A stretch of 32,000 bases of DNA from Thermoanaerobaculales bacterium (GTDB taxonomy: Bacteria > Acidobacteriota > Thermoanaerobaculia > Thermoanaerobaculales > Thermoanaerobaculaceae): assembly GCA_044447965.1 (NCBI GenBank), contig JBIOGJ010000020.1:15538-47537 (forward strand). Reading direction: 5' to 3'. A program made the translations under genes and the position numbers. Positions 8,618-23,166 of this stretch are shown here, piece by piece. The notes beneath the pieces are model-generated. The model saw only the letters and a program-made list of their open reading frames with translations, did no database searches and was not told the DNA's origin. Numbering within the stretch: the stretch's first letter is position 1; every line of letters begins with the position of its first letter.

Positions 8618-9157
8618 TCAGCCGCCCCCAATCGAGTCGGCGGCCGTCACGAGGTAGCGCGTCGCGATCAGCTCGGCGGCGACCGCCACGGCGCGGCGTA
8701 CGGGATCCGACAGGCCGGGGGAGATCTCCTCAGGGAGCGGACCCGTTTGACAGCAGAGCACCCTCACCTCGATGCTCCCCTCATCGGCGAGCTCGCGGAG
8801 CAGGTTGCTGGTGGGGAGCTGGTGGAATGAGAAATCGTCTTGCTTGGTGGCGGGGAGCTCCATCGGATCGAGGTCGAACACCTCGCCCGGCGTGCGGCCC
8901 CGATCCACGGCGTCAACGATGAGGATACGTTCGGGCCGCACCGAAGAGAGCGACACCGTAAATAGGAGCGTGCGCACGCCGGTGCCCGCGTCGAGGAGGT
9001 ACACGTCGGCGGGGATCTCAAAGTGCTGCTCGAGGTAGTCGATGACCGCGCTGCCGAAACCGTCGTCCCCGAACAGGACGTTGCCGCAGCCGAGGATCAA
9101 CGTGCGGGCGCGACAGAACGCAGGCAACGCCTCCCTGCTCGCCTCCTCCACCGACAC
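8618..9157 (-). CDS. [NiFe]-hydrogenase maturation endopeptidase (HyaD/HycI/FrhD family)
   Basis: TLILGCGNVLFGDDGFGSAVIDYL...YLLDAGTG...ILIVDAVD is the family signature. I chose the GTG at 9157 (or 9151), downstream of the large-subunit stop and preceded by GGGAGG. The 5' part of the long track ORF overlaps mvhA out of frame. Confidence 0.85.
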   Translation of the reverse strand: MSVEEASREALPAFCRARTLILGCGNVLFGDDGFGSAVIDYLEQHFEIPADVYLLDAGTGVRTLLFTVSLSSVRPERILIVDAVDRGRTPGEVFDLDPMELPATKQDDFSFHQLPTSNLLRELADEGSIEVRVLCCQTGPLPEEISPGLSDPVRRAVAVAAELIATRYLVTAADSIGGG

Positions 9158-9198: not shown

Positions 9199-10641
9199 CT
9201 AGTTCGCAAGCGAGTCGATGAGCCTCCCTTCGACGTCGAAGATGTCGAGCTTCACGGCAAACCTGCCGTCCAGCCGGTGCGTCGCGCAGGAGAAGCAGGG
9301 GTCGTAGGCGCGAATCGCCATCTCCACCCGGTTGAGGATGCCCTGATCGTAGGCGCCGCCCTTGATGACGCTCTTCGCGGCCTTGGTGACCGACATGTTG
9401 ATCGGCGCGTTGTTGTGGGTGGTGCCCACGATGAGGTTGACGTTGGTGAGCATGCCGTTGGAGTCGGTGGTGTAGTCGTGGATCAAGGTGCCGCGTGGGG
9501 CCTCCACGCATCCCACCCCGCGTGCGGCGCGCGGCGTCACCTTGACGCGCGTCTCGGGGCTGGTGATCTCCGGGTCGGCAAGCAGGCGCACGGCGTTCTC
9601 GGCGCTGTAAAGCAGCTCGATCAGGCGCGCCCAATGGTAAAGCAGGGTGAGCTGGGCGGGACGCCCGAACAGACGCCGGAACTCCTCGAGCTCGGCCTGC
9701 GCGAGCGGCGTGTCAATGTGATCGCACACGTTGATCCGGGCCAGGGTGTTAGTACGGTAGATCCCGCTCGGGTGATCGAGGTCCATCGAGAACGAACCCC
9801 ACTTCTTCGCGTAGGGGAACTTGAGGTAGGTCCAAGGCTCGACGTGTTCCGCGATGAAGTCCGTGTAGCGCTCGGCCGGAAACTCCTCGAACGTGCCGTC
9901 AGGCGCCATCAGGCGTAGGAGACCGTCGTAAGCGTTGAGGGCGCCGTCCTTGGTCACCGTGCCGAGGAACCCGGTGTTGATCACCCCCAACGACTTCACC
10001 ACATCGAGGTACTTGGGGAAGATGCTCTCCTTCGCGAAGGCGATGGTGAACTTCGCGAGTTCGAGCGCCTCGGCCGCCACCGGTTGGAGTTGGTCGCGCT
10101 CCTCGCCGCTCAGAGGCTTGGAGAATCCGCCCGGCACGGCGGCCTGCGGGTGGATCGGCTTGCCCGCGAGAACCTCGAGCATCTTGGCGCAGGCGTGACG
10201 GACCCGCACCACGCGCCTGGCGAGCTCGGGGGCCGCCTGGACGATGCCGAGGACGTTGCGCACCCCGTAGTCCGCGTCCGGCCCGAGGACGAAGTCGGCG
10301 CCGGCGAGAAAGTAGAAGTGGAGGATGTGCTCCTCCATGTACGCAATGCTGTTGCACAGCTCGCGCAGCTTGCGCCCGGCCGGCGGCGGAGTGACGCCGA
10401 AGACCGCATCGCACGCCTTGGCCGCAGCGAGGTGGTGCGACCACGGGCACACGCCGCAGATGCGAGGCGTGATGCGTGGCATGTCCTCGACCGGGCGGCC
10501 GATGCAGAAGCGCTCGAAACCGCGCAGTTCGATGACGTTAACGCGCGCGGTATCGACATCACCGGCGTCGTTGAGTTGGATGGTGACTTTCGCGTGTCCC
10601 TCAATGCGGGTGACGGGTTGAATGACGAGCGTCTTAGCCAT
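9199..10641 (-). CDS. mvhA: [NiFe] hydrogenase large subunit, group 3 (Mvh/F420-non-reducing type by context)
   Basis: The N-terminal Ni-binding motif is RICGVCPWSHH and the C-terminal motif is DPCFSCATH. A ~25 aa tail follows, which the endopeptidase would be expected to remove. The N-terminus MAKTLVIQPVTRIEGH is typical. Confidence 0.93.
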   Translation of the reverse strand: MAKTLVIQPVTRIEGHAKVTIQLNDAGDVDTARVNVIELRGFERFCIGRPVEDMPRITPRICGVCPWSHHLAAAKACDAVFGVTPPPAGRKLRELCNSIAYMEEHILHFYFLAGADFVLGPDADYGVRNVLGIVQAAPELARRVVRVRHACAKMLEVLAGKPIHPQAAVPGGFSKPLSGEERDQLQPVAAEALELAKFTIAFAKESIFPKYLDVVKSLGVINTGFLGTVTKDGALNAYDGLLRLMAPDGTFEEFPAERYTDFIAEHVEPWTYLKFPYAKKWGSFSMDLDHPSGIYRTNTLARINVCDHIDTPLAQAELEEFRRLFGRPAQLTLLYHWARLIELLYSAENAVRLLADPEITSPETRVKVTPRAARGVGCVEAPRGTLIHDYTTDSNGMLTNVNLIVGTTHNNAPINMSVTKAAKSVIKGGAYDQGILNRVEMAIRAYDPCFSCATHRLDGRFAVKLDIFDVEGRLIDSLAN

Positions 10642-10644
10642 GGC

Positions 10645-11568
10645 TCACCTCCTCGGAGCGGGCCGCAGGCGCCCGGCGCCGCAGAAACGGTTGAAGGTCG
10701 GGGCTCGGTCGGAAATCTCCTTGGGGTCGAGACCGATCGTGGAGAGTGCCCCCATCATGTCGACCATCGGGTTGGCGGTCTCGGAGAGCGGCCCGAAGCA
10801 CCCCTCGCACGGCATGTAGGCCCGGATGCACCGGGGCGTGCCTTGCCCGCCGCCGCACCCCGAGCGCGTGGCCGGTCCGAGGCAGAGGAAGCCCTGCTCC
10901 ATCAGGCAACGCATCTCCGACAGCGGGCGGCCCGGGGTGAAGTCAGGCCCTTCCAGGCGGCGCTTGAGCGTCGACGCGGCCTTCTTCTCCCGGATAGTCG
11001 GACACTCGTCGCACACGCTCTTGGTCGGCAGCTCGATCGGCTTGCCTTCCAGCAGCGCCATGAGCGCACCCGCCACCATCTCGGGAGTGGTGGGACAGCC
11101 GGGCAGCTTGAGGTCTACCGGCACGACATCGCTCACCGGGTAGACGCGATCGGTCAGGTGTGGGATGTCCGTGGAGGGAATGCCGTCGTTATCGGTCGAG
11201 ACGCTGCCGTGGTAGACCTTCTCGAGCAGCTCGCCGGTTGCGTACAGATTGGCGAGCGCAGGGATGCCCCCAGAGCACGCACACGACCCCATCGCAATCA
11301 GGATCTTGCACTTCCGGCGCATCTCCTCGGCCAGCTTCCGGTTCTCCTCGTTGCGGATGCCGCCGGTGACGATGCCTATGTCGGCTTCCGGGACCTCCAT
11401 CTCGGTACCCTCTCCGGTCTGGCCGTAGAGCTTGTGGTCCATCAGCACCGGCATGTGCACGATATCGACCTGCTTGAGCACCTCAAGCAGCGGCTCGCCA
11501 ATGTCGAGGATCGTGACCTCGCATCCACCGCAGATGGCGAACCATTCCTCAGCAAGTCTTACCCCCAT
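10645..11568 (-). CDS. mvhG: [NiFe] hydrogenase small subunit, group 3 (no Tat signal)
   Basis: Motifs seen: FAICGGCEVTILD, IAMGSCACSGGIPA, LPGCPTTPE, and a Cys-rich C-terminus (CDECP...CLGPATRSGCGG...CEGCFGP). A strong RBS (AAAGGAGGTG) lies upstream. Confidence 0.9.
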   Translation of the reverse strand: MGVRLAEEWFAICGGCEVTILDIGEPLLEVLKQVDIVHMPVLMDHKLYGQTGEGTEMEVPEADIGIVTGGIRNEENRKLAEEMRRKCKILIAMGSCACSGGIPALANLYATGELLEKVYHGSVSTDNDGIPSTDIPHLTDRVYPVSDVVPVDLKLPGCPTTPEMVAGALMALLEGKPIELPTKSVCDECPTIREKKAASTLKRRLEGPDFTPGRPLSEMRCLMEQGFLCLGPATRSGCGGGQGTPRCIRAYMPCEGCFGPLSETANPMVDMMGALSTIGLDPKEISDRAPTFNRFCGAGRLRPAPRR

Positions 11569-11649: not shown

Positions 11650-12072
11650 TCACGTCCGGTATGGGCTGGGGCCGAGCTTCCTCAACTGCTCGGTCATCTC
11701 GGTGATCACCTGGGCGAAGCGCGGCCCCTCCGAGGCCGACACCCACTCCAGGCGAAAGCGCTCCGGCTCCAAGCCGAAGTCCTCCAGCATCAAAGTGATG
11801 GCATCCGCGCGAGACTTCGCACGCAGGTTTCCCTCGAGGTAATGGCAGTCCCCAGGGTGGCAGCCGCAAATGAGGACACCGTCCGCGCCCCCGGTGAGTG
11901 CGTCCACCACGAGGTTCGGGTGCACCATCCCGCTGCACTGCACCCGGATGATGCGCAGGTTGGACGGGTACTGCAGGCGTGACGTCCCCGCCAGGTCGGC
12001 TCCCGCGTACGAGCACCAGTAGCAGCAGAAGGCGATGAGAACGGGCTCATGCGGCTGGCTCATCGCGCTCAT
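11650..12072 (-). CDS. mvhD: Methyl-viologen-reducing hydrogenase delta subunit (MvhD/FlpD family, [2Fe-2S])
   Basis: VLIAFCCYWCSYAGADLAG...IIRVQCSGMV...GADGVLICGCHPGDCHY is the MvhD signature. I chose the ATG at 12072, 7 nt after the upstream stop. Confidence 0.9.
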   Translation of the reverse strand: MSAMSQPHEPVLIAFCCYWCSYAGADLAGTSRLQYPSNLRIIRVQCSGMVHPNLVVDALTGGADGVLICGCHPGDCHYLEGNLRAKSRADAITLMLEDFGLEPERFRLEWVSASEGPRFAQVITEMTEQLRKLGPSPYRT

Positions 12073-12079
12073 CGCCGCC

Positions 12080-15000
12080 TCACGCCGTCCCCTGCAGCGC
12101 CGTCTTGACCATGGCGGAGAGTTGCTCGGGGCGGAAATGCCACACGAAAATCGCCTTCTTCGGGCAGGTGGCCTGGCACGTGCCGCACCCCTTGCACACC
12201 GCATCGTCGACCCGCACGCGTTTCTTGGTCTGGCCGTTGGCCGTGTACTCGACGAGCGTGATGGCGTGGAACGGACAGGGGTCGACGCAGTAGGCGCAGC
12301 CGTCGCAGTTCTCCTCGACCACGTGCGAGTGGGTCGCTTCGAGATCGATGTGGTCCTTGGAGAGGATCGCGGCGGCCCGCGCCGACGCGGCGGCGGCCTG
12401 CACGATCGTCTCCTCGATCGACTTCGCCGAATGGGCGAGCCCGGCGACGTAAACGCCGTCGGTGGCGAAATCCACCGGGCGCAGCTTCAGGTGGGCTTCG
12501 AGGAAGAAGCCGTCCTGGTTGAGCGGGACCTTGAGGAGCTGCGCGGTTGCCTTGTTCTCCTCGTAGGGGACCGTCCCCGCCGAGAGCACGACCAGGCCCG
12601 CGTCGATGGCAAGATCCTGCTTGAGCTGCGGGTCGTGGACCGTGACGACGAGGCCGCCCTCGCCACGGGTCACGACCGGCTTGGCGTCGTCCTCGTGACG
12701 CAGGAAGACGACCCCTTGCGCTCGCGCCTTGGTGTAGAAGCTCTCCCGGAACCCGTAGGTGCGGATGTCCCGGTAGAGCACGTAGACGCTGGTGCGCCCA
12801 GAGAGCTGCTTGATCCTCAGGGCGTTCTTGACCGCCTCGGCGCAGCAGACGCGCGAGCAGTAGGGATGCTCCGCATCGCGGGAGCCGACGCACTGGATCA
12901 TGACCACCGAGGACGGCAGCCATCCGCCTCCACGCGTGACGAGGCGTTCCTCCAGCTCGAGTTGGGTCACGACCCGGTCGTCCTCGCCGTAGAGGTGCTC
13001 CTTGGGCTTGTACTCGCGGGCTCCGGTGGCGACGACGACGACGCCGTGCTCGACTCGCTCGACAGCCCCATCGTAGGCGATCGTGGTCGTGAAACTACCC
13101 ACCGACCCCTCCACCTTCTCGACGGAGGCCCCGGTGAATACCCTGATGCTCGCGCTCCCGCGCACCCGGTCGATGAGGCGGCGCAGGGCCGCCTGTGGAT
13201 CGTCGCCGTTGAAGAGATAGCGGATGCGGGTGAGGTTGCCGCCGAGCTGCGCCTCTTTCTCGACGAGTGAGACGTCGAAGCCCTGGTCGGCAAAATCGAG
13301 CGCCGAGGTCATGCCGGCGAGGCCGCCGCCGATCACGAGCGCGGACCTCCTGACCGGGGCCTCCCCGCCTTGCAGCGGCTCGAGCAGCCGCGCCTTGGCG
13401 AGCGCCATGCGAACCAGGTCCTTCGCCTTGCGCGTCGCCCGCTCGGGCTCAGAGGAGTGCACCCAGGAGCACTGGTCACGGATGTTCGCCATCTCGAACA
13501 GGTAGGGGTTGAGGCCGGCCTCGCGGCAGGTGTTGCGGAAGAGCGGCTCGTGCGTGCGCGGCGAGCAGGAGGCCACCACCACCCGGTTCAAGCCGTGCTC
13601 GCGGATTTTCCCCTTGATCCGCTCCTGCGTGTCGGTCGAGCAGGTGTACAGATTCGTCTCAGCGTGGACGACGTTGGGCAGGCTGCGCGCATACTCCGCG
13701 ACGCTCGCCACGTCCACGACGCCGGCGATGTTGGTGCCGCAGTGACAGACGAAGACCCCCACCCGCGGCCCCTGTCCCGTCACGTCCAGCTCCGGCGGGT
13801 AGACGCTCGGCGTGACGAGAGTGCCGCGGACGTCGCGTAGCAGGTTGAGGACTTTGGAGGCCGCCCCGGACGCCTGCATCACGGTCTCCGGGATGTCCTT
13901 GGGCTCGGTGAACGGGCCGCAGGCGAAGATGCCGTCGCGCGAGGACTCGACCGGCTCGAAGGTCGAGGTCTTGCAGAAGCCGAACTCGTTCAGCGCGATC
14001 CCGAATGTGCTCGCGATGTCCTGCACGTTACGGGGCGGCAACAGGCCGGTGGACAGGACGACGAGGTCGTACTCCCGCTCGGTCTTTGTGTCGTCCTCGG
14101 TCAGGTACTTGATGACGACGCTCCCCGCCGTGGCGCCCGCCTCGATGATCGGCGGTCGGCACCGGATGTATCGCACCCCTTGGGCGAGCGCTCGCTGGTA
14201 GTACGCCTCGAACCCCTTGCCGAAAGCACGGGCGTCCATGAAGAAGATGTCGGTTTCGAGCGCGCTGCCGCTGTGCTCCTTCGCAATCAGGGCCTCCTTG
14301 GTGGCGTACATGCAGCAGACCGAGGAGCACCAGTCGCGCTCGGCGTCACGCGAGCCCACGCACTGGATGAAGGCGATCCTCGTGGGCGGCTTGTGATCCG
14401 AAGGCCGGACGACGTGGCCGGAGAACGGCCCGGAAGCGGAGAGGATCCGTTCGAACTCGGCCGCGGTGATGACGTTGGGAAGCCGGCCGTAGCCGAGGTC
14501 TGGCTTGAGGCGGGCGTCGAAGAGGTCGTAGCCCGGCGCGAGGACGATCGCCCCCACCTGCAGCTCGACGGTTCGATCCACGTCGTCGAACTTGATCGCC
14601 TTGACGCCGCAGACCTGTTCGCATACGCCGCAGACGCCGTGCTGGAGGTGGACGCAGGTCGCCGGGTCGATGGCCGGACGGCTCGGCACCATCTGCGGAT
14701 ACATGATCGAGATCGCGGGCCGGTTGCTGAGTCCGCGGTTGAACTCAGACGCAATCGGGATGGGCGCGGCGGCGCTCATGGCGGGGGAGACCAGCCGCTC
14801 GGTCGGGCAGACGAAGTCGCAGGCGCGACACGTCCAGCACGCCTCGTTGTGCTTGCCGTAGGGCGGTTCGACCCGGCGCCGCGGACCGCGGCCCGAGAAG
14901 CCGACCGCGGCGCGCCCCATTCGCTCCTCGCACATTCGCACGCACAGCCCGCAGTCGATGCAGTCGTCGTCCTTCTTCGCGATGCGCGTGTCGGTCACGC

Positions 15001-15331
15001 CGAGCGACGCTGCCACCTGGCGGACCGCCGGGGCCTCGGGGCAACGGGCGAGGAGAAGCTCGGCGACGATCCGGCGCGCGCTTGCGATCCGCGGCGTGTC
15101 GGTCCTCACGACCAACCCCTCGAGCGCGGGGGACTGGCACGACGCCTGGACCGAGGTAGCCCTGCCCGGGACGTCGACCTCGACAAGACACAGGCGACAG
15201 GCGCCGTACGGCAAGAGCGCCTTGTGGTGGCAGAGGGTGGGGACCTTGATCCCGAGGCCCTCGGCCGCCTCGAGCAGCGAGGTCCCCTCGGGGACCTGAA
15301 CCGCCTGGCCGTTGATGGTCAGCGCGATCAC
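12080..15331 (-). CDS. hdrA: Multidomain flavo-FeS protein (1083 aa): NuoG/HydA-type N-terminal [2Fe-2S]+2x[4Fe-4S] module, then the C-terminal three-quarters of an HdrA, then a second complete HdrA-like unit
   Basis: - aa 1-185: LTINGQ...CHHKALLPYGACRLC (2Fe-2S), CIDCGLCVRMC, CWTCRACDFVCP.
- aa ~190-515: CVHLQHGVCGVCEQVCGVKAI, VGAIVLAPGYD, NVITAAEFERIL, IAFIQCVGSRD..CSSVCCMYATKEA, IFACGP.
- aa ~520-1083: VGVFVCHCGTNIAG...NPYLFEMANIRDQCSWVH, ALVIGGGLAGMTSALDFA, MIQCVGSRD..CSRVCC, and a C-terminal CDGCAYCVDPCP / CKGCGTCQATCP.
- The GTG start at 15331 overlaps the upstream stop (GTGA). Confidence 0.88.
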   Translation of the reverse strand: MIALTINGQAVQVPEGTSLLEAAEGLGIKVPTLCHHKALLPYGACRLCLVEVDVPGRATSVQASCQSPALEGLVVRTDTPRIASARRIVAELLLARCPEAPAVRQVAASLGVTDTRIAKKDDDCIDCGLCVRMCEERMGRAAVGFSGRGPRRRVEPPYGKHNEACWTCRACDFVCPTERLVSPAMSAAAPIPIASEFNRGLSNRPAISIMYPQMVPSRPAIDPATCVHLQHGVCGVCEQVCGVKAIKFDDVDRTVELQVGAIVLAPGYDLFDARLKPDLGYGRLPNVITAAEFERILSASGPFSGHVVRPSDHKPPTRIAFIQCVGSRDAERDWCSSVCCMYATKEALIAKEHSGSALETDIFFMDARAFGKGFEAYYQRALAQGVRYIRCRPPIIEAGATAGSVVIKYLTEDDTKTEREYDLVVLSTGLLPPRNVQDIASTFGIALNEFGFCKTSTFEPVESSRDGIFACGPFTEPKDIPETVMQASGAASKVLNLLRDVRGTLVTPSVYPPELDVTGQGPRVGVFVCHCGTNIAGVVDVASVAEYARSLPNVVHAETNLYTCSTDTQERIKGKIREHGLNRVVVASCSPRTHEPLFRNTCREAGLNPYLFEMANIRDQCSWVHSSEPERATRKAKDLVRMALAKARLLEPLQGGEAPVRRSALVIGGGLAGMTSALDFADQGFDVSLVEKEAQLGGNLTRIRYLFNGDDPQAALRRLIDRVRGSASIRVFTGASVEKVEGSVGSFTTTIAYDGAVERVEHGVVVVATGAREYKPKEHLYGEDDRVVTQLELEERLVTRGGGWLPSSVVMIQCVGSRDAEHPYCSRVCCAEAVKNALRIKQLSGRTSVYVLYRDIRTYGFRESFYTKARAQGVVFLRHEDDAKPVVTRGEGGLVVTVHDPQLKQDLAIDAGLVVLSAGTVPYEENKATAQLLKVPLNQDGFFLEAHLKLRPVDFATDGVYVAGLAHSAKSIEETIVQAAAASARAAAILSKDHIDLEATHSHVVEENCDGCAYCVDPCPFHAITLVEYTANGQTKKRVRVDDAVCKGCGTCQATCPKKAIFVWHFRPEQLSAMVKTALQGTA

Positions 15332-17271
15332 GACGGCCTCTGCGCGCGCGCCTCTTCAGCGCGTCGCGCTCGCCACTCCGCTACGGGCACCGGCTCGGGC
15401 AGCGTGACCAGCTCCTCGGCTTCCCGGCCCGAGACCTTGCGCACGGCCGCGACCTTGGGCGGGCAGACCTCCAGGCACTGGCCGCACTTGGTGCACTTGG
15501 CCTGGTCGACCACATGCACGTGCTTGGCCGATCCCCGGATCGCCTCGCTCGTGCAGGCCTTCAGGCAGAGCTGACAGCCGGGACAGAGGTCCGGGTCGAT
15601 CGTGTACTTGACGAGGCTCTTGCACGCGAGCGCCGGACAGCGCCGCTCGCGGATGTGGGCCTCGTACTCGTCGCGGAAGTAGCGCAGCGTCGAGAGAACC
15701 GGGTTGGGCAGCGTCTGGCCCAATCCGCACATCGAGGCGTCCTTCACGGCCGCCCCCAGCTCTTCGAGGAACTCGATGTCGCCCTCTCGCCCGGCGCCGC
15801 CGGTGATCCGCGTCAGCACCTCGAGCAGCGCCGCGCTCCCTTCGCGGCACGACGAGCACTTCCCGCACGACTCGTCGTTGGTGAACTGGAGGAAGTACTT
15901 GGCGATGTCCACCACGCAGGTGTCTTCATCGAGCACGATCATCCCGCCGGAGCCCATGATCGAGCCCGCCTGCTGCAGGCTCTCGTAGTCGATCGGCAGG
16001 TCCACCAAGCTGGCCGGGATGCACCCGCCGGACGGCCCGCCGGTCTGGATCGCCTTGAGTTTTCTGCCCTGCGGGATGCCACCGCCGATGTCGTACACGA
16101 TCTCGCGCAGCGTGAGGCCCATCGGGACCTCGATCAGCCCGGTGTTGGTGATCTTGCCGACCAGGGAGAAGATCTTCGTCCCCTTGCCGGTGGCGGTGCC
16201 GACGCGCGCATACGCCTCGGCCCCGCGCACGATGATGACCGGCACGTTCGCGAGCGTCTCGACGTTGTTGATGACGGTGGGCTGGCCCCAGAGGCCCGAC
16301 TGCACCGGGAACGGGGGCCGCTGGCGCGGTTCCGGGATCGCTCCCTCGATCGAGCGCAGCAGTGACGTCTCCTCGCCGCATACGAAGGCGCCCGAACCCT
16401 CGCGGATCTCGATCTCGAAGGCGAAGCTCGAGCCGAGGATGCCCGGCCCAAGCAGGCCGTTCGCGCGGGCCTGCTCGATCGCTGTCCCCAGCCGGCGGAG
16501 CGCGAGCGGGTACTCGGAGCGGACGTAGACGTACCCCTTGGCGGCGCCGATCGCGTACGCCGCGATCGTCATGCCCTCGACCACCGCGTGCGGATCGGAC
16601 TCGAGCAGGCTGCGATCCATGTACGCGCCGGGGTCGCCCTCGTCGCAGTTGCCGACGATGTATCGGGGCGTCCGCGCCTCGGCTGCGCAGGCCTTCCACT
16701 TCCGGCCGGTCGGGAAACCGGCGCCGCCACGCCCGCGGAGGCCTGCGGCGGTAATCTCCTCAACGACGTCCGAAGGCGTCATCCCGACGACGACCTTCTC
16801 GAGCGCCGCATATCCGCCGCGCCCGATGTAGTCCTCGATCCTCTCTGGGTTGATCTGGCCCGCGTTGCGAAGAACGACGGGCGTCTGCTTCCGGAAGAAC
16901 GGGATCTCGGTGTCGAGCACGTGCTGCTGTGCGACACGACCGTCGCGGACGTGCTCGGCGAAGACCTCTGCCGCCTTGGCCCCGTCGAGGTGCGCGTAGA
17001 GCACCGGAGAGACGCCGCGGATCTCGACGGTGCTGGTCGGCTCGGCGGAGCAGAGCCCGGCGCAGCCGGTGGTCACGATCTGCACGTCCGTGCGCCCGCT
17101 CTTCGCGAGCTCGGCGCAGAAGGCGTCATGCACGGACTTCGCCCCGGCCGCCAGACCGCAGGTGCCCATGTGCACGACGACCCGCGCCCGGTAGCTCGTG
17201 CCCTCGAGGCTGAGGCCCTTCCTCGCGTCCTCGCGCAGCCTGCCGAGCGCTTGCACAGTGAGCTGGGGCAC
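15328..17271 (-). CDS. nuoF: NuoF/HoxF/HydB-like NAD(H)-binding FMN subunit, with an N-terminal thioredoxin-like [2Fe-2S] domain and a C-terminal 2x[4Fe-4S] ferredoxin domain
   Basis: Motifs seen: GLRGRGGAGFPTGRKW (FMN), NCDEGDPGAYMDR, SGAFVCGEETSLL, ESCGKCSSCREG...MCGLG (N3 cluster), CPGCQLCLKACT / CTKCGQCLEVCP, and an N-terminal VVVHMGTCGLAAG...GCAGLC. I chose the GTG at 17271, 1 nt after the upstream stop with GAGGCGG upstream. The track ORF's ATG at 17373 would overlap the upstream gene by ~100 nt. Confidence 0.9.
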   Translation of the reverse strand: MPQLTVQALGRLREDARKGLSLEGTSYRARVVVHMGTCGLAAGAKSVHDAFCAELAKSGRTDVQIVTTGCAGLCSAEPTSTVEIRGVSPVLYAHLDGAKAAEVFAEHVRDGRVAQQHVLDTEIPFFRKQTPVVLRNAGQINPERIEDYIGRGGYAALEKVVVGMTPSDVVEEITAAGLRGRGGAGFPTGRKWKACAAEARTPRYIVGNCDEGDPGAYMDRSLLESDPHAVVEGMTIAAYAIGAAKGYVYVRSEYPLALRRLGTAIEQARANGLLGPGILGSSFAFEIEIREGSGAFVCGEETSLLRSIEGAIPEPRQRPPFPVQSGLWGQPTVINNVETLANVPVIIVRGAEAYARVGTATGKGTKIFSLVGKITNTGLIEVPMGLTLREIVYDIGGGIPQGRKLKAIQTGGPSGGCIPASLVDLPIDYESLQQAGSIMGSGGMIVLDEDTCVVDIAKYFLQFTNDESCGKCSSCREGSAALLEVLTRITGGAGREGDIEFLEELGAAVKDASMCGLGQTLPNPVLSTLRYFRDEYEAHIRERRCPALACKSLVKYTIDPDLCPGCQLCLKACTSEAIRGSAKHVHVVDQAKCTKCGQCLEVCPPKVAAVRKVSGREAEELVTLPEPVPVAEWRARRAEEARAQRPS

Positions 17272-17272
17272 G

Positions 17273-18172
17273 TCAGGCCGCCTCACTCTTGCGGTACCGG
17301 TCGACGATCTTCGGGATGTCCTTGGCCGCAAGTTTCCCGTAGACCTCGCTCCCGATCGCCACCGCCGGGGCAAGGCCGCAGCAACCGATGCAGCGCACCG
17401 CCTTGAGGGTGAAGAGCCGGTCGCGAGTGGTCTCGTCCACGCCGATCTCGAGGACGTCCATGAACTTCTCCATCAGCCGCTCGGAGCCCCGCACGTAGCA
17501 CGTCGTCCCCATGCAGACGCTGATTGTGTGTTTGCCGCGTGGCGTGAGGCTGAAGGCACCGTAGAACGTCGCGACGCGGTAAAGGTGGGTGAGCGGGACG
17601 CCGGTCTCCTGTGACACGAAACGCAGGACGTCCTCCGGGAAATAGTTGAAGCGGGCGTTGATCTCCTGGAGGATCGGCATGAACGGACCCTCTCGCCCCT
17701 TCCAGCGCGCCAGGATTGCCTCGACTTCTTGCCGGGCTTCGGGTGCGAGGTCGACGGGCGCGCGCTGCTCCGCGGGGATCGGCTGCACGCGGTAGCGTAC
17801 GGGGCAACTCGCCACACAGCTCCCGCAGCCGGTGCATTTGTCCTCGTCGATGTAGCGGGCTCGCTTCTTGACCGTGACGCTGAAGTTCCCCGGGCCCCCT
17901 TCGATGTGCTCCACCTCCGCGAGGGTGAGCAGCTCGATGTCCTTGTGCCGGCTCAGGTCCGCGAGTCGCGGGGCCATTGTGCACATGGCACAGTCGTTGG
18001 TCGGGAAGGTCTTGTCGAGCTGCGCCATCACCCCGCCGACGCCAGCCTTCTGCTCGACCAGGAACACCTTGATCCCCGCGGCAGCGAGGTCGAGCGCCGC
18101 TTGCATGCCGCCGATCCCCCCGCCGACGACGAGCGCCGCCCCGACCTTCTGCGCGCGGGCGACGTCACTCAT
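17273..18172 (-). CDS. Fusion protein: HdrA N-terminal FAD-binding fragment (aa 1-~125) joined to a NuoE/HoxE-type thioredoxin-like [2Fe-2S] domain (aa ~140-299)
   Basis: The HdrA part reads ALVVGGGIGGMQAALDLAAAGIKVFLVE, MAQLDKTFPTNDCAMC, GNFSVTVKKRARYIDEDKCTGCGSCVASCP. The NuoE part reads PILQEINARFNYFPEDVLRFVSQETGVPLTHLYRVATFY, SVCMGTTCYVRG, VRCIGCCGLAPA. The ATG at 18172 overlaps the upstream stop (ATGA). Confidence 0.88.
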   Translation of the reverse strand: MSDVARAQKVGAALVVGGGIGGMQAALDLAAAGIKVFLVEQKAGVGGVMAQLDKTFPTNDCAMCTMAPRLADLSRHKDIELLTLAEVEHIEGGPGNFSVTVKKRARYIDEDKCTGCGSCVASCPVRYRVQPIPAEQRAPVDLAPEARQEVEAILARWKGREGPFMPILQEINARFNYFPEDVLRFVSQETGVPLTHLYRVATFYGAFSLTPRGKHTISVCMGTTCYVRGSERLMEKFMDVLEIGVDETTRDRLFTLKAVRCIGCCGLAPAVAIGSEVYGKLAAKDIPKIVDRYRKSEAA

Positions 18173-19491
18173 GCGCGCACGGGCGCGAGGCCCGCCTCCA
18201 TTGGTACTTCCTCTCTCGCCCTCTCACGGACTGCCTGGAAGTACAGGGCAAGAGGCCGATCGATCATGTGCGCCCACTCGCCGAACGGCACCTCCACCAC
18301 GACCATCGGCACGAGGATGACGAGGTGGGCGGCGTAGGCGTAGTGAGCGGTCAGCGCCATCCCGAGCAGCCGGAGGACGTGAATCGCGATCCCGCTCACA
18401 GCCGTGAGCCACAGCAGCAGTGGAAGCGTGACCGGTCCTTCCTTCCGCGCGGTCCCGTGCCGCCGGCGGATGCGCCGGAGGATCACGTCGGTCGTGCCCC
18501 AGAGGATGAACGCGGTGGCCAAGTAGCCCAGCCACCTCTGTGGGTGATACAGGGGGTAGATCTTGTCGGTCTGGAACCGGCCCAGGAACGCCACGGTCAG
18601 GACGAACATGAGCACCGTGCCGAGCGCCATCAGCCAGTGTTTGAGCCACCGCCGCGGGACCGCCTCGGCGCTCCCCGCGTAGAGCCACCAGCCGACCACC
18701 GGCGCGCCGCGCGCCTCCGACGGGCACTTCCGCAACTGGCGGTGGGTAAGCATGTGAACCATCAGCGTCCGGGCTTCGGCGAGGAGGTGGCGCGGCGCCG
18801 GTCGTGTCCGGCCCATGGTGAGCCGATACATCCGCCAGACATGGGTGACGAGGACGATCGCCGGCAGCGCGTAGACGAGCCACGTGAAGTAAAGGATCTT
18901 CGGGAACATGTGGCCGATGCCCATGGGGGTCGCGACGAAGTCCGGAACTGACAGCCCCACCCAACGGAGGTGGTATGCGACCACCAGTGCGAGCACGACA
19001 GCCCCCACTGCCAGGAGCGACCCTAAGTGCCACGCCCGGGAGCGGAGGATTCTGGCGGATAGCCCGGTCCAGTCGTACTCCCCTGTCAGGTAGCGACGCA
19101 GCGTCCGCATCGACGCCGCCGGGTCCGCCTGGCGCGGGCATTTGAGGGAGCAGTCCCCACAATCGTGACACAGCCACGGCTCCAGGCCCGCGACGACGGC
19201 CTCGCGGAGTCCGAGGACGACGTGGCGGATGGGCTTGCGCGGGAACGTCACATCGCCGAGCGCCAACTCGCAGGCGACCGAGCAGCCGCCACAGTTGAGG
19301 CAGCTCGTGTCGAACTTCCCCAGGCGTTGAACCTCGCTGAGCAGAGAGGAGTCGACCCGCAACGGGGACCGCGCTGCAACGCCCGCCTCCAGGCGTGCGG
19401 ACGCCATCACCTGACACGAGGCGGCGTCTAGCGGCGCAGTCACGGCCCCGCGCTGGTCGCTCGACGTACCCGCAGCGTCGTCCCGCCCCAT
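18169..19491 (-). CDS. QmoC-like membrane subunit: HdrC-type 2x[4Fe-4S] domain fused to a NarI/HdrE/DsrM-like (putative di-heme b) transmembrane domain
   Basis: The N-terminal soluble part has CLNCGGCSVACE ... CHDCGDCSLKCP. About 6 hydrophobic helices follow, with conserved-looking His residues and a C-terminal VPFGEWAHM motif (the NarI-family PFxxxxH type). The start is uncertain: GTG 19554, ATG 19491 or ATG 19407. Confidence 0.75.
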   Translation of the reverse strand: MGRDDAAGTSSDQRGAVTAPLDAASCQVMASARLEAGVAARSPLRVDSSLLSEVQRLGKFDTSCLNCGGCSVACELALGDVTFPRKPIRHVVLGLREAVVAGLEPWLCHDCGDCSLKCPRQADPAASMRTLRRYLTGEYDWTGLSARILRSRAWHLGSLLAVGAVVLALVVAYHLRWVGLSVPDFVATPMGIGHMFPKILYFTWLVYALPAIVLVTHVWRMYRLTMGRTRPAPRHLLAEARTLMVHMLTHRQLRKCPSEARGAPVVGWWLYAGSAEAVPRRWLKHWLMALGTVLMFVLTVAFLGRFQTDKIYPLYHPQRWLGYLATAFILWGTTDVILRRIRRRHGTARKEGPVTLPLLLWLTAVSGIAIHVLRLLGMALTAHYAYAAHLVILVPMVVVEVPFGEWAHMIDRPLALYFQAVRERAREEVPMEAGLAPVRA

Positions 19492-20054: not shown

Positions 20055-20756
20055 TCAGACGCCGAGCACGATCACGATCAGCCCCGAGCCGGCGATCACC
20101 GCCCCCGCGAGCGCGTGCGACCAGCGCTCGAACGCCGCGAGGGGGAGCCGCTTCACGCCGGAGAGCGCGAGGGAGACCAACGTCAGCATGGTCGCGATCG
20201 TGATCACCGAGAAGACCACGGCGGTGAGCGCGGCGGTCTCCCAGCGCCCACGGCTTGCCGGCAACACGAACAGCGGTATCAGCGGCTCGCACGGTCCCAG
20301 CACGAAGATCGTAAAGAGTGCCCAGAACGTCGTGCGGGAGCGGTCGACTCCCGCGTGCTCGTGGCGTTGCTCGCCTTGCGTGTGGAGATGGACATGCCCA
20401 TGATGGACGTGCGGCACGAGTCCGGTCCGCTGCCGCACCGCGTGGCGCACGCCCCAGACGGCGTACGCGAGGCCGAATGCCACGAGTGCCCAGGCGGCGA
20501 GGCCGCCGCGAGCGTTCTCGGCAGCGGTGAGGTGGGCAACTCCGAATCCAAGCGCCAATCCGACGACACCGAGCACAACCGACGAACCGACGTGCCCCAG
20601 GCCGCACAGGAACGTCACCACCAAGGTCCGCCGCTGGCTCCACCCTCGTGCCTGGGCGAGCATCACGAACGGCAGGGTGTGATCCGGCCCCAGCACGGTA
20701 TGCGTCAGCGCGATCGCCGCCGCCGCGATGAGGAGGTCGAGCGAAAAGGCGTCCAT
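20055..20756 (-). CDS. Putative nickel/cobalt transporter (HupE/UreJ- or NicO/UreH-like membrane protein) with a His-rich loop
   Basis: There are 6-7 hydrophobic helices. The first helix has the motif ALTHTVLGPDHTLPFVML (the H-x4-G-x-DH type seen in HupE/UreJ-like Ni permeases). The central loop is PHVHHGHVHLHTQGEQRHEH and there is a GPCEPLIP motif. The ATG at 20756 overlaps the hypE stop (TGATG). Confidence 0.7.
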   Translation of the reverse strand: MDAFSLDLLIAAAAIALTHTVLGPDHTLPFVMLAQARGWSQRRTLVVTFLCGLGHVGSSVVLGVVGLALGFGVAHLTAAENARGGLAAWALVAFGLAYAVWGVRHAVRQRTGLVPHVHHGHVHLHTQGEQRHEHAGVDRSRTTFWALFTIFVLGPCEPLIPLFVLPASRGRWETAALTAVVFSVITIATMLTLVSLALSGVKRLPLAAFERWSHALAGAVIAGSGLIVIVLGV

Positions 20757-21832: not shown

Positions 21833-21844
21833 CCACCTCTCGCC

Positions 21845-22942: not shown

Positions 22943-23166
22943 GCGTCGCCGCCCGCCGCGGCCACCTGACGCAACAGCTCCAGGGTCACCTGCGCCTCGG
23001 CTTCGTCAACCACACCAATGGCGTAGCCGGCGTGGACGAGGAGATACTCGCCCAGCTTCGCCTCCGGGTGCAGCAGCAGGGAGACTTCCCGCCGCACGCC
23101 GTCCAGTTCGGCCACGCCCAACGCCTCATCGCGCTCCACCAACTTCATCGGCACCGCCAGGCACAT
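22939..23166 (-). CDS. hypC: Hydrogenase maturation chaperone HypC (75 aa)
   Basis: The N-terminus is the canonical MCLAVPMKLV. The ATG at 23166 overlaps the hypF stop and the gene's own stop overlaps the hypD ATG (ATGA). The longer track ORF (to 23343) lies inside hypF. Confidence 0.9.
   Translation of the reverse strand: MCLAVPMKLVERDEALGVAELDGVRREVSLLLHPEAKLGEYLLVHAGYAIGVVDEAEAQVTLELLRQVAAAGGDA

Follow-up and report, generated by a model that had tools for sequence, protein, structure and literature searches.

HdrA divided between two genes of an acidobacterial hydrogenase operon, with a Bfu-type module lying between the pieces and fused to both

In a hydrogenase operon of an uncultured Acidobacterium, HdrA, a flavoprotein that splits electrons, was found as two gene pieces (in g1 and g3), with a complete Bfu-type module, linked to NADH and ferredoxin, lying between them and fused to both. 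Such an arrangement, which is widely conserved and for which no description was found in a literature search, would join two different electron-bifurcating machines. The operon lies within the window analyzed here, i.e., the entire stretch of 32,000 nucleotides, and comprises the following features, in which unit 1 is the divided HdrA and unit 2 is a second HdrA-like sequence, and for which all NCBIfam scores lie below the equivalog cut-offs:

18169..19491, minus: g0, QmoC-like membrane Fe-S subunit (NCBIfam qmoC NF038018, HdrC models, Pfam)
17273..18172, minus: g1, 299 aa; HdrA ~145-259, then a NuoE/BfuC domain
17858..18142, minus: g1 aa 11-105, N-terminal HdrA thioredoxin-reductase-like FAD piece (5odc_A 145-238)
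17798..17857, minus: g1 aa 106-125, first CxxCxxCxxxCP motif of the inserted ferredoxin (HdrA 239-259)
17732..17797, minus: g1 aa 126-147, linker from the HdrA fragment to NuoE/BfuC (homologue alignment)
17276..17731, minus: g1 aa 148-299, NuoE/HydC/BfuC thioredoxin-like [2Fe-2S] domain (PF01257)
15328..17271, minus: g2, BfuB/HydB-type NuoF homologue (Pfam and structure matches)
12080..15331, minus: g3, 1083 aa; NuoG-N/BfuA, then HdrA from ~252, then unit 2
14798..15331, minus: g3 aa 1-178, NuoG-N/type-2 BfuA module (Fer2_4, Fer4_21; 9mqx_A match)
14582..14797, minus: g3 aa 179-250, point at which HdrA resumes (5odc_A 252-315; P0272 ~132-190)
13787..14581, minus: g3 aa 251-515, remainder of the unit-1 FAD domain (5odc_A ~316-511; HdrA2 up to 562)
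13367..13786, minus: g3 aa 516-655, unit-2 N-terminal domain, VCHCGTNIAG...ANIRDQCSWVH (5odc_A 3-140)
12347..13366, minus: g3 aa 656-995, unit-2 FAD domain, GGGLAG and CVGSRD...CSRVCC (5odc_A, HdrA2 profile)
12083..12346, minus: g3 aa 996-1083, unit-2 C-terminal 2x[4Fe-4S] ferredoxin (5odc_A 568-651)
11650..12072, minus: g4, MvhD/VhuD [2Fe-2S] subunit (Pfam FlpD, E 2e-53; NCBIfam VhuD, 135 bits)
10645..11568, minus: g5, [NiFe]-hydrogenase small subunit, Mvh/Vhu G type (Pfam Oxidored_q6; NCBIfam VhuG, 248 bits)
9199..10641, minus: g6, [NiFe]-hydrogenase large subunit, group 3c, Mvh/Vhu A type (NCBIfam VhuA, 445 bits)
8621..9151, minus: hydrogenase maturation endopeptidase, HycI family (Pfam PF01750, E 5e-24)

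Alignment to the solved HdrA (5odc_A) placed HdrA residues 145-259 on g1 12-126 and residues 252-511 on g3 185-446 (unit 1), with residues 3-234 and 507-651 falling on g3 521-751 and 932-1080, respectively (unit 2). Similarly, positions 141-257 and 251-562 of the NCBIfam HdrA2 profile corresponded to g1 12-127 and g3 187-500. Unit 2 covers profile positions 1-230 and then ~326-651 (the second range in the HdrA profile), meaning that the inserted ferredoxin is skipped, and presents TRIRYLFNGDDPQAAL in place of the LDKTFPTNDCxxC motif when aligned to 5odc_A. With E-values of 1e-38 to 1e-165, these fragment alignments are far beyond chance. In P0272, an uninterrupted natural homologue of 1025 aa, residues 14-131 align to g1 9-126 (65% identity) and residues ~132-1025 to g3 ~191-1081 (57% identity). 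Because P0272 passes directly from the one to the other, the two fragments abut exactly. At the level of sequence, these comparisons confirm the proposal of the preliminary description, all of whose quoted ORFs and motifs were located on the minus strand where it had placed them, that an HdrA is interrupted within its inserted ferredoxin domain, the gap holding a NuoE-NuoF-NuoG(N)-type module; the two pieces are complementary parts of HdrA. The same description had a second, differently truncated HdrA following, and indeed, g3 521-1083 aligns to HdrA and lacks both the inserted ferredoxin and the LDKTFPTNDC motif. The gene junctions are tight, with g0 and g1 overlapping in ATGA, g1 and g2 being separated by 1 nt, and g2 and g3 overlapping in GTGA; the overlapping start and stop codons suggest translational coupling.

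Pfam examination of g1 revealed a FAD Rossmann fold (aa 13-70), a single Fer4 motif (aa 106-125) and a 2Fe-2S_thioredx domain (NuoE, PF01257; aa 151-293, E 7e-43). The piece spanning aa 11-105 carries GGGIGG and LDKTFPTNDCAMC, includes Cys61 and Cys64 as the equivalents of HdrA Cys194 and Cys197, shares 65% identity with P0272 aa 14-110 and is the best-conserved part of g1 (84% mean column identity). The final HdrA segment ahead of the break (aa 106-125) contains C113, C116, C119, C123 and P124 of motif 1, all invariant in 24 homologues, as is every cluster-ligating Cys of g1. Mean column identity is 61% in the ensuing linker, where R126, V129 and Q130 are nearly invariant. Among solved structures, the NuoE part is matched best by C subunits from bifurcating Bfu enzymes (7t2r_C, 8a6t_C, 7q4v_C, and 9mqx_C).

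The start of g2 was set at the GTG at 17271, the mechanical ORF reaching 17373. According to Pfam, the protein comprises an N-terminal Trx-like [2Fe-2S] domain, an FMN/NAD(H) site, the NuoF [4Fe-4S] domain and a C-terminal 2x[4Fe-4S] ferredoxin. Residues 31-604 match the B subunits of 9bov, 8oh5, 7t2r, 7q4v, 9n5u and 9mqx (E 1e-222 to 1e-184); the match to complex-I NuoF is confined to aa 132-544. When published Bfu hallmark criteria (PMC9304861) were applied, the equivalents of A. mobile BfuB C438, H525, C531 and C536 were found to be conserved. The N-terminal module of g3, in which Pfam detected Fer2_4 (aa 1-79) and a dicluster Fer4 (Fer4_21; aa 120-178), matches residues 6-181 of Wor-Bfu BfuA (9mqx_A; E 2e-35). 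It holds [2Fe-2S] ligands C34, C45, C48 and C65 and a 2x[4Fe-4S] ferredoxin (C124/127/130/134 and C165/168/171/175), and has no His-ligated cluster. As judged from these matches, what lies between the HdrA pieces is the whole of a bifurcating Bfu-type core (BfuC/BfuB/type-2 BfuA), and not a plain NuoEFG. The earlier notion of an NADH/FMN module is thereby refined, its position being upheld and its nature, given the B-subunit matches and B2 residues of g2, being more than that of a simple NADH/FMN module.

In g3, HdrA picks up again with PIPIASEFNRGLSNRPAISIMYPQMVP, from the stretch between the two Cys motifs of the inserted ferredoxin, and with motif 2 itself (C226, C234, C237, and C241). The remainder of the unit-1 FAD domain presents the [4Fe-4S] motif CVGSRD...CSSVCC (C324, C335, C339, and C340) and FACGP. 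In unit 2, the N-terminal domain contains C529, C531, C564, C589 and C621, and the FAD domain, which lacks Cys194/197 as well as the inserted ferredoxin, contains C814, C825, C829 and C830; Pfam assigned Pyr_redox_2 to ~aa 665-964 and a C-terminal dicluster to aa 1008-1060. Each of these cluster-ligating residues, together with all 12 Cys of aa 1-178 and all eight of aa 996-1083, is invariant in 36 homologues. The N-domain cluster of unit 2 needs a Cys197-type ligand from a partner unit (PMC9012536), which by analogy would here be g1 Cys64. Motif 2 is preceded, at a distance of 50 residues, by the A4 motif (C165-C175) of g3 itself, which might conceivably stand in for motif 1 in the pairing of Cys motifs. 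An AF2 model of g3 gave pLDDT values mostly of 70-90 over aa 251-515 and below 50 over the ferredoxin region (aa 117-250).

The ORF of g0 reaches 19554 and offers Met codons at 19491 and 19407, such that its start is uncertain. An HdrC-like N-terminus with two CxxCxxCxxxC motifs is followed by ~6 TM helices; aa 84-154 match NCBIfam HdrC models (Pfam Fer4 dicluster, aa 84-143), and the qmoC model NF038018 is matched end to end (positions 7-360 of 360), albeit with 137 bits against a cut-off of 300 bits. In g6, the group-3c L1/L2 motifs, as defined previously (PMC6085437), read RICGVCPWSH and AYDPCFSCATH.

Thirteen independent loci, distributed over Acidobacteriota, Desulfobacterota, Ignavibacteriota and Bacillota, share this gene order, and at least 120 protein clusters (90% identity) each were found for g1 and g3, covered full-length. 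A g0 homologue directly precedes g1 in L001-L010, and a g4 (MvhD) homologue follows that of g3 in every locus examined; no hydrogenase genes lie within the examined stretches of L011, L012 and L014. Some relatives carry HdrBC/HdrCB in place of the QmoC-like gene. Locus L013 encodes a single complete HdrA (N-domain to C-terminal ferredoxin) with BfuC/BfuB/BfuA-N at the same split point, together with HdrCB and MvhDGA, and further protein clusters hold g1 forms that include the N-domain. The inter-motif loop of the ferredoxin is empty in P0272, the operon of which reads HdrC-HdrB-tandem HdrA-MvhD-small-large-HycI, and contains an NfnB-like insert, ~40 residues downstream of the Bfu break point, in a 1498-aa paralogue from L003. 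This paralogue adjoins the orthologous split operon and holds in a single chain both fragments, to which it is 72% and 71% identical.

On balance, g0-g6 would probably form one H2-linked multi-subunit complex built on a pseudo-heterodimeric HdrA, with the low-potential branch wired into Bfu; we infer its assembly, direction and substrates from sequence, the direction of electron flow following Mvh-Hdr polarity. Two polypeptides (g1 aa 1-125 and g3 aa ~190-515) would together make up unit 1, which would keep Cys197, the FAD-domain [4Fe-4S] cluster and the inserted ferredoxin domain, with unit 2 (g3 aa 521-1083) providing the N-terminal-domain cluster and the C-terminal ferredoxin. Heterodimeric tandem HdrAs are marked by Cys197/N-domain complementarity (PMC9012536), and the pairing of units 1 and 2 appears best described in these terms, unit 1 having Cys197 and the ferredoxin insert. 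Given that the genes place the Bfu core (the C-terminal half of g1, g2, and g3 aa 1-178) between motifs 1 and 2 of the unit-1 ferredoxin, the halves of that domain lie on different chains, each covalently joined to one end of the Bfu module. H2 would be oxidized by MvhAG, with electrons entering through Mvh/MvhD. The high-potential electron would pass from the FAD-domain [4Fe-4S] cluster to the QmoC-like subunit and on to menaquinone, an HdrBC-like disulfide reductase possibly being the partner in some relatives. The low-potential electron would travel from the N-domain cluster (with g1 Cys64 as ligand) through the split ferredoxin clusters to BfuA cluster A4 and from there to the BfuBC FMN/Fe-S center, reducing NAD+ and probably ferredoxin as well. 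In HdrA, the low-potential path leads from FAD via cluster A3 to the inserted ferredoxin, itself hard-wired to polyferredoxins in methanogens (PMC13518236). The earlier suggestion that the inserted ferredoxin is the low-potential exit agrees with published structures (PMC13518236; PMC9012536), such that a low-potential branch of HdrA hard-wired to the Bfu module would, by analogy, be architecturally sound. One point against the one-complex proposal is energetic. Electron transfer from H2 is downhill both to menaquinone and to NAD+, and bifurcation would be sensible only if ferredoxin or another low-potential acceptor were also reduced. Also counting against it are the low pLDDT values of the g3 ferredoxin region and of a chimeric unit 1, the A4 motif as a rival for motif 1, the lack of hydrogenase genes in the examined stretches of L011, L012 and L014, and the NCBIfam scores below cut-off.

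As the window derives from a MAG, errors of assembly or binning, a frameshift artefact and a pseudogene in decay were considered, artefacts of assembly or frameshift having been raised in the preliminary description. Yet, 13 independent loci, drawn from various phyla and projects, show the same three genes with the same break point, the arrangement recurs in at least 120 protein clusters per gene, and the reading frames remain intact, their start and stop codons being coupled. Since conservation of this breadth excludes an assembly or frameshift artefact, an explanation of this kind is vanishingly improbable and effectively refuted. It is also very improbable that the pieces remain apart, with the first 125 residues of g1 forming an independent small FAD/Fe-S domain on NuoE and unit 1 of g3 being a degenerate, flavin-free scaffold. 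This could accommodate the uninformative AF2 chimera of unit 1 (a "healed" chain folded without an alignment; pLDDT 39.8), but not the exact abutment of the fragments on intact P0272 at 57-65% identity, the single-chain L003 paralogue matching both at 71-72% identity or the strong constraint on both halves. Moreover, unit 1 of g3 lacks a GxGxxG strand-helix-strand of its own, the HdrA part of g1 is just that element plus motif 1, and a dicluster ferredoxin domain is impossible from one Cys motif.

Opposite flow through the intact complex is conceivable, if unlikely. Here, Bfu would oxidize NADH and reduced ferredoxin, as in HydABC or NiFe-Bfu, and pass on electrons of about -400 mV, which would reach the [NiFe] site for H2 evolution after crossing the split ferredoxin, then the HdrA units and finally MvhD. 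HdrA would serve mainly as a wire, with an auxiliary or regulatory role left to the QmoC-like subunit. Genes of the DRTGG/CBS/HATPase/PHP type occur in HydABC-type operons, and such genes occupy the gap between g2 and g3 in L001, a gap of ~2.7 kb that is also seen in L004, L005, L009 and L014. The subunits closest to g1-C, g2 and g3-N come from bifurcating hydrogenases of the reversible kind, Bfu enzymes can run in either direction (PMC9304861), and fermentative anaerobes are among the carriers. This confurcating mode, however, leaves unexplained why 12 of the 13 loci reaching upstream of g1 have a high-potential module, be it QmoC-like or HdrBC (regulator genes precede g1 in L014, and the L011 stretch begins too near g1 to tell), and why one complete HdrA bifurcation unit is invariant (Cys197, N-domain cluster, FAD-domain cluster, and FAD motifs), and would have electrons running backwards along the low-potential exit path of Mvh-Hdr. 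A serial scheme, which we consider improbable, would have Bfu confurcate NADH and reduced ferredoxin to deliver mid-potential electrons to the HdrA FAD, which would bifurcate them to quinone (high) and, via MvhD, to the hydrogenase (low), allowing H2 evolution against high H2 pressure. Exactly such logic was proposed for Bam-Bfu by Schut et al., although the Bam mechanism is itself unproven and Bfu is here attached at the inserted ferredoxin, which in solved Hdr complexes is the low-potential exit rather than the point of donor entry.

As for known systems, MvhADG-HdrABC of Methanothermococcus thermolithotrophicus (5ODC) has in common with the present operon a group-3c [NiFe] hydrogenase, MvhD and the four HdrA domains with their Cys ligands, and in Mvh-Hdr the domain equivalent to g3 aa 996-1083 is where electrons enter from MvhD. 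There, HdrA is a homodimer and the high-potential partner is HdrBC; here, HdrA is an asymmetric tandem on two genes and the partner in the window is a QmoC-like membrane protein. In the Hdr-Vhu-Fwd and Fdh-Hdr-Fmd super-assemblies, the inserted ferredoxin is likewise wired to a partner (polyferredoxin) rather than serving a free ferredoxin; in the present operon, it is gene fusion that ties this domain to its partner, a Bfu NAD(H)/ferredoxin core. HdrAs with an NfnB insert, namely, ANME-1 HdrA9-11 (PMC9012536) and HdrL of Desulfobacterium autotrophicum (PMC2702500), a type of which L003 holds a close paralogue, accommodate one domain in one polypeptide, as opposed to a three-subunit Bfu core with the host gene broken in two.

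The class II benzoyl-CoA reductase BamBCDEFGHI (Bam-Bfu) is the sole described system with BfuABC (BamIHG, in that order), an HdrA-like protein (BamE) and an MvhD-like protein (BamF). Its subunits are encoded by separate, unbroken genes. Bam-Bfu has no hydrogenase, its catalytic module being a tungsten AOR (BamBC), and a BamB-like gene is absent from the window; two bifurcating modules in series were proposed (Schut et al.). With NiFe-Bfu (HydABCSL of Acetomicrobium mobile, 7T2R) and other Bfu enzymes, the likeness lies in the full-length matches of g2 and the NuoE part of g1 to the B and C subunits, g2 also sharing the residues that define the B2 cluster. In contrast to NiFe-Bfu, BfuA is here of type 2 (clusters A1, A2, and A4), as in Wor-Bfu (9MQX), the hydrogenase is of the Mvh type and linked via HdrA and MvhD with no direct link to BfuA, and HdrA fragments are fused to BfuA as well as to BfuC.

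QmoABC of sulfate reducers shares the general layout of two HdrA-like units, an MvhD-like element and an HdrC-like plus HdrE-like membrane subunit. The preliminary description saw units 1 and 2 with a separate MvhD as mirroring QmoA/QmoB, a putative analogy that the QmoC-like nature of g0 supports indirectly. Here, however, the qmoC score of g0 is far below the cut-off, MvhD is a separate protein, relatives carry HdrCB instead of the QmoC-like gene, and the window contains no aprBA, sat or dsr genes. Finally, relative to tandem or fused HdrA pseudo-heterodimers (ANME HdrA3/4, 5/6, and 12/13; Asgard HdrA-HdrA-MvhD fusions), the order of the units is reversed, with the Cys197 unit coming first, and it is this unit that is split and hosts the Bfu core.

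Examination of the 8.6-19.5 kb region of the window revealed one tightly packed operon on the minus strand, running from a QmoC-like gene (g0) through a gene encoding a HycI-type protease.

Features of the operon and its surroundings (positions within the window)
18169-~19491, minus strand: g0, membrane Fe-S protein
17273-18172, minus strand: g1, HdrA-N/NuoE fusion, 299 aa
15328-17271, minus strand: g2, BfuB, 647 aa
12080-15331, minus strand: g3, BfuA-N/HdrA fusion, 1083 aa
11650-12072, minus strand: g4, MvhD
10645-11568, minus strand: g5, [NiFe]-hydrogenase small subunit
9199-10641, minus strand: g6, [NiFe]-hydrogenase large subunit
8621-9151, minus strand: HycI-type maturation protease
20759-25658, minus strand: hypE, hypD and hypF, directly upstream of the operon
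20058-20756, minus strand: membrane protein, 233 aa
4523-6274, minus strand: GTPase EngA/Der, an unrelated neighbour
7890-8585, minus strand: class-I glutamine amidotransferase of the peptidase C26 family, an unrelated neighbour
26951-29401, plus strand: large subtilase, an unrelated neighbour

The g0/g1 and g2/g3 junctions are ATGA and GTGA overlaps, respectively, while g1 and g2 lie 1 nt apart. The hydrogenase belongs to group 3c (Mvh/Vhu), as reflected in the MvhG-type small subunit, the presence of MvhD and both large-subunit motifs of this group in g6, namely L1 (ICGxCxxxH) as RICGVCPWSH and L2 (AYDPCxxCATH) as AYDPCFSCATH. The top NCBIfam matches of the hydrogenase genes were VhuA, VhuG and VhuD, every score being below the equivalog cut-off. 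The association of HdrA with HdrBC, which goes with heterodisulfide reduction, is absent from the window, where the QmoC-like gene stands instead; g0 matched the QmoC profile NF038018 from end to end, with 137 bits against a cut-off of 300 bits. QmoC itself joins an HdrC-like 2x[4Fe-4S] domain to an HdrE/NarI-like membrane domain. HdrC/HdrB-like genes were found in three related loci (L012, L013 and L084). The 233-aa membrane protein, which begins at the hypE stop codon, contains a His-rich loop (HVHHGHVHLHTQGEQRHEH) and presents only a weak Pfam match to DsbD_2; possibly, it supplies the hydrogenase with nickel as a transporter. In the related locus L001, hypA and a cobW/hypB-like gene lie downstream, instead of the upstream hyp genes seen in the window.

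According to the preliminary description, one HdrA is split between g1 and g3. Each of the motifs quoted there was found in the window, and the split was borne out by the Pfam map and by alignments to 5odc_A, the solved HdrA of M. thermolithotrophicus, and to the NCBIfam HdrA2 profile. Pfam assigns to g1 a FAD Rossmann fold, one Fer4 motif (aa 106-125) and a NuoE-type 2Fe-2S_thioredx domain (aa 151-293), in this order, and to g3 Fer2_4 (aa 1-79), a dicluster Fer4 (aa 120-178), flavoprotein regions and a C-terminal dicluster. Residues 12-126 of g1 align without gaps to 5odc_A 145-259, with C61 and C64 corresponding to HdrA C194 and C197 of the LDKTFPTxDCxxC motif; together with GxGxxG, this motif marks the TrxR-like FAD domain of HdrA, and both are found in g1. 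Likewise, g3 residues 185-446, 521-751 and 932-1080 correspond to 5odc_A 252-511, 3-234 and 507-651, respectively. In terms of the HdrA2 profile, g1 covers positions 141-257 and the first HdrA part of g3 positions 251-562. The two CxxCxxCxxxC motifs of the inserted ferredoxin were both found, but on two polypeptides: g1 bears motif 1 (C113-C123), and motif 2 (C226-C241), which includes a 5-residue insertion, is on g3. Each of the eight Cys is invariant. No single polypeptide passed the HdrA2 cut-off of 1100 bits, g1 scoring 158 bits and g3 816 bits, the HdrA fold being spread over two genes.

That the two fragments are complementary parts of one HdrA fold, as also proposed earlier, was confirmed by alignment of both to P0272, a natural, uninterrupted homologue of 1025 aa. 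Residues 14-131 of P0272 correspond to g1 9-126 (65% identity) and residues ~132-1025 to g3 ~191-1081 (57% identity); the fragments therefore meet end to end, without any gap or duplication. P0272 offers the strongest evidence for considering the fragments as two halves of one protein. A different form of the same backbone is encoded by a paralogue in locus L003, a single chain of 1498 aa that shares 72% identity with g1 2-125 and 71% identity with g3 209-1080. Here, the same inter-motif loop carries an NfnB/GltD-like insert (Fer4_20 + Pyr_redox_2, aa ~170-600), positioned ~40 residues downstream of the Bfu break, which shows that this loop is able to take a different NAD(P)H module.

Operons containing the uninterrupted and the NfnB-bearing forms
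L084:4582-12649 (JGI 3300045453, Ga0484003_001720): insert-less operon, in the order HdrC-like, HdrB-like (CCG), tandem HdrA P0272, MvhD, small subunit, large subunit, HycI
L003:3425-7921 (GCA_947085385.1, CAMTWA010000003.1): paralogous operon directly upstream of the orthologue of the window operon; QmoC-like, 1498-aa HdrA-N/NfnB-like/HdrA-C/HdrA2 chain, MvhD, and no hydrogenase genes of its own

Together, P0272 and the L003 paralogue therefore place one HdrA backbone in three states, namely insert-less, with an NfnB-like module in cis, and with a Bfu module accompanied by gene fission. The last of these also occurs with a single complete HdrA. In L013, the g1 homologue (437 aa) includes the HdrA N-terminal domain and the g3 homologue (596 aa) runs from BfuA-N through the rest of HdrA to the C-terminal ferredoxin, with the break at the same place as in the window. 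As the operon also carries HdrC, HdrB, MvhD and MvhGA, L013 is a canonical Mvh-Hdr gene set with a Bfu core inside HdrA; the same form was found in further clusters, such as P0255 and P0256. The L013 contig (DATKXY010000041.1) is labelled 'archaeon'. This label is doubtful, since an NtrC-type sigma-54 activator (6356-7693), a bacterial kind of regulator, is encoded there as well.

The module filling the gap had been described as NuoE-NuoF-NuoG(N). While its position was upheld, its identity required refinement. Along its full length, g2 matched the solved B subunits of 9bov, 8oh5, 7t2r (NiFe-Bfu), 7q4v, 9n5u (NfnABC) and 9mqx (Wor-Bfu), with E values of 1e-222 to 1e-184, whereas complex-I NuoF matched only its core. 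Pfam assigned to g2 the architecture of BfuB, i.e., an N-terminal [2Fe-2S] domain, the FMN/NAD(H) site and C-terminal 2x[4Fe-4S]. In A. mobile BfuB, the B2 [2Fe-2S] cluster is ligated by C438, C476, H525, C531 and C536, the His being absent from non-bifurcating homologues (PMC9304861). Equivalents of C438, H525, C531 and C536 are retained in g2. The position of C476 is occupied by Thr in both g2 and the 8oh5 B subunit and by Cys in 7t2r_B and 9bov_B; as such, this proposed ligand is not universal among Bfu enzymes. Residues 148-294 of g1 are nearest to Bfu C subunits (7t2r, 8a6t, 7q4v and 9mqx) and residues 3-178 of g3 to the type-2 BfuA of Wor-Bfu (9mqx_A residues 6-181), with clusters A1, A2 and A4; neither Pfam nor structure-sequence matches revealed a His-ligated cluster domain in the BfuA part of g3. 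A complete BfuC/BfuB/BfuA core therefore occupies the gap in HdrA. In type-2 Bfu enzymes, as described by Schut et al. (PMC9304861), the core is fed through cluster A4; in g3, the A4 motif (C165-C175) sits 15 residues ahead of the point where HdrA resumes.

The split arrangement is conserved and widespread. Proteins of the g1 type (~295 aa, same Pfam architecture) form at least 120 clusters at 90% identity, which matched with identities of 64-99%, and those of the g3 type (~1085 aa) likewise form at least 120 such clusters, with 99-100% coverage. Source names include Thermoanaerobaculia, Terriglobia, Korobacteraceae, Blastocatellia, Aminicenantes, Gemmatimonadota, Eisenbacteria and Thermodesulfobacteriota. 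The earlier suggestion that orthologous split points be sought in related genomes was answered by 13 independent loci (L001-L014, L002 being a duplicate of L001) in which the order g1, BfuB, g3, MvhD is kept. A genome profile scan with the g1 alignment yielded at least 11 full-length loci, most of the matches listed being ordinary NuoE/HydC genes. A query spanning the junction (g1 aa 60-210), searched against a set of 1.84 billion cluster representatives, was matched on both sides of the break by roughly 25-30 of the 50%-identity clusters, a lower bound given that many representatives are fragmentary. The cluster-ligating Cys residues of the g1 and g3 homologues are all invariant, and, within g1, conservation is highest in the HdrA piece (mean column identity 84%, vs. 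78% for the NuoE part). An assembly or frameshift artefact was rejected on the basis of this conservation across g1 clusters, g3 clusters and loci.

Variations on the arrangement were also noted. In L001 (and L002), a cassette made up of small genes of the DRTGG, CBS-HATPase, PHP_C and HATPase_c types (L001:13143-15934), known from HydABC-type operons, lies between the BfuB gene and the g3 homologue, placing a further ~2.7 kb between the HdrA halves. A g2-g3 gap of ~2.7 kb also occurs in L004, L005, L009 and L014, with no such gap being seen in the window. Between g1 and BfuB, several loci, including L001 (10887-11270) and L013 (10912-11298), encode an extra Trx-like [2Fe-2S] protein of ~127 aa, homologous to the first 119 residues of g2. 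In P0116, a g1 homologue from a 1051-bp ENA contig, an unrelated ketoacyl synthase-like N-terminus (PF00109) replaces the FAD fold; this is probably a chimeric short contig.

The split unit (unit 1; the HdrA part of g1 and g3 190-515) is followed on g3 by a second HdrA unit (unit 2). Unit 1 contains Cys197 (g1 C64) along with the cluster of the FAD domain and the inserted ferredoxin and lacks an N-terminal domain as well as a C-terminal ferredoxin, while unit 2 presents the reverse set. Unit 2 covers positions 1-230 of the HdrA2 profile and resumes at ~326 of the HdrA profile, and so lacks the inserted ferredoxin; it also lacks Cys194/Cys197, with TRIRYLFNGDDPQAAL in place of MAQLDKTFPTNDCSIC. 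The CxGSRD...CSxxCC motif, the N-terminal domain cluster and the C-terminal dicluster ferredoxin are present and invariant, spread over the two units. The same complementarity was described for tandem or fused HdrA by Chadwick et al. (PMC9012536), who inferred a heterodimer where Cys197 of one unit completes the N-domain cluster of its partner. On this reasoning, and in light of the 5ODC geometry, the features retained here would together make up a single full bifurcation unit, with the FAD of unit 1 at its centre.

Four Cys motifs, one on g1 and three on g3, are available for two dicluster domains. By homology, motifs I and II of g3 would form the BfuA ferredoxin, while motif 1 of g1 and motif III of g3 would form the HdrA insert. 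Geometrically, the motifs could conceivably pair the other way round; in both cases, one ferredoxin domain has to be assembled from two polypeptides. In an AF2 model of g3 (36-sequence alignment), the FAD domains were good, with HdrA as the top fold in Foldseek, while the whole Fe-S region (aa 117-250) had pLDDT <50 and is unreliable for motif pairing. An artificially 'healed' unit 1 (g1 aa 1-124 + g3 aa 190-515), folded without an alignment, gave a pLDDT of 39.8, a value too low to be informative.

The component classes found here are known, namely Mvh-Hdr, tandem HdrA, NfnB-in-HdrA (ANME-1 HdrA9-11, HdrL), the Bfu family, Bam-Bfu and QmoC. Two features look new, namely the splitting of HdrA and the presence of a whole Bfu core in its ferredoxin loop, fused to both fragments. 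QmoABC is linked to aprBA, whereas no apr, sat or dsr genes were found among the ORFs scanned in the 32-kb window. A full-text literature search returned no description of an HdrA split by NuoEFG/Bfu, although an earlier mention may still exist; papers on carriers of similar genes speak only of 'mvhDCA' or 'NuoEFG next to hydrogenase'. In Desulfurivibrio, the annotated 'NuoEFG' (RS00815-00805) adjoins hydrogenase genes. The Bfu survey of Schut et al., with its 57 clades, left out metagenomes, and no Mvh/Hdr-linked Bfu type was found in the parts of that survey covered here (PMC9304861). The g1 protein is identical to NCBI MFI5166547.1 (Thermoanaerobaculales MAG, Acidobacteriota), where its sole annotation is 'NAD(P)H-dependent oxidoreductase subunit E', and genes of the g1 and g3 types are currently labelled 'NADH:ubiquinone oxidoreductase subunit E' and 'FAD-dependent oxidoreductase'. 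Acidobacteriota, Desulfobacterota and other environmental bacteria commonly carry these genes.

From the parts list and its conservation, both directly observed, we infer how the complex may function; overall, the earlier interpretation of the split is supported, and its proposal that the low-potential branch of HdrA would be hard-wired to an NADH/FMN module is architecturally sound. H2 would be oxidised by MvhAG. On the high-potential side, electrons would leave the FAD-domain [4Fe-4S] cluster for the QmoC-like g0, entering at its HdrC-like head, and from there reach menaquinone, with an HdrCB pair presumably replacing this exit in L012, L013 and L084. On the low-potential side, they would pass from the N-domain cluster through the split ferredoxin clusters and BfuA cluster A4 to the BfuBC core, which would reduce NAD+ and probably ferredoxin as well. 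This polarity is proposed because in solved Hdr complexes electrons run from FAD via cluster A3 to the inserted ferredoxin, and from there to a hard-wired polyferredoxin (PMC13518236).

Given the potentials listed in PMC9304861 (H2, -414 mV; MQ, -74 mV; NAD, -320/-280 mV; Fd, -420/-500 mV), a low-potential branch could be amply driven by the drop from H2 to menaquinone, although such a branch is sensible only when ferredoxin is among the compounds reduced, NAD+ by itself being insufficient. On the basis of sequence, evolution of H2 from NADH and reduced ferredoxin by the complex is a less probable alternative, and slightly less probable again is a Bam-like scheme with Bfu as the donor to the HdrA FAD. 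Bam-Bfu, the class II benzoyl-CoA reductase, also has Bfu, HdrA-like and MvhD-like subunits, but on separate genes. It has a tungsten AOR-type BamB with BamC; a scan of the operon and of other window ORFs found no AOR-family gene.

HdrA-type and Bfu-type enzymes represent two of the four known electron-bifurcating families. For the Bfu family, a reversible coupling of NAD(H) and ferredoxin with a third substrate is characteristic. Tentatively, the operon may encode a 'double bifurcation', in which a ferredoxin domain halved over two chains would hard-wire two mechanistically different engines, the FAD of HdrA and the FMN/Fe-S centre of Bfu, in series, such that the drop from H2 to menaquinone drives a second bifurcation yielding NADH and reduced ferredoxin; such a system could be widespread among the Acidobacteriota and Desulfobacterota of soils and sediments, with the same HdrA loop possibly serving as an evolutionary socket that takes nothing, NfnB or a whole Bfu core. 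The exit of low-potential electrons from HdrA and the handling of the third substrate by the Bfu core are both still being studied. Here, the link is encoded by the genes themselves, the low-potential exit domain of HdrA being halved and each half fused to one end of the Bfu core, which makes the operon a system, fixed at the genetic level, for studying whether two bifurcation sites are able to act in series and bears on the role of bacterial 'Mvh-type' group-3c hydrogenases outside methanogens. The no-insert, NfnB-insert and Bfu-insert series on one backbone offers ready-made controls for comparison. Finally, in L003 (10927-14097) and L012 (10810-13989), the BfuB/NuoF homologue is ~1056-1059 aa long, with a C-terminal GltD/NfnB-like domain (Fer4_20 + Pyr_redox_2), which suggests NADPH as an extra substrate in some versions.
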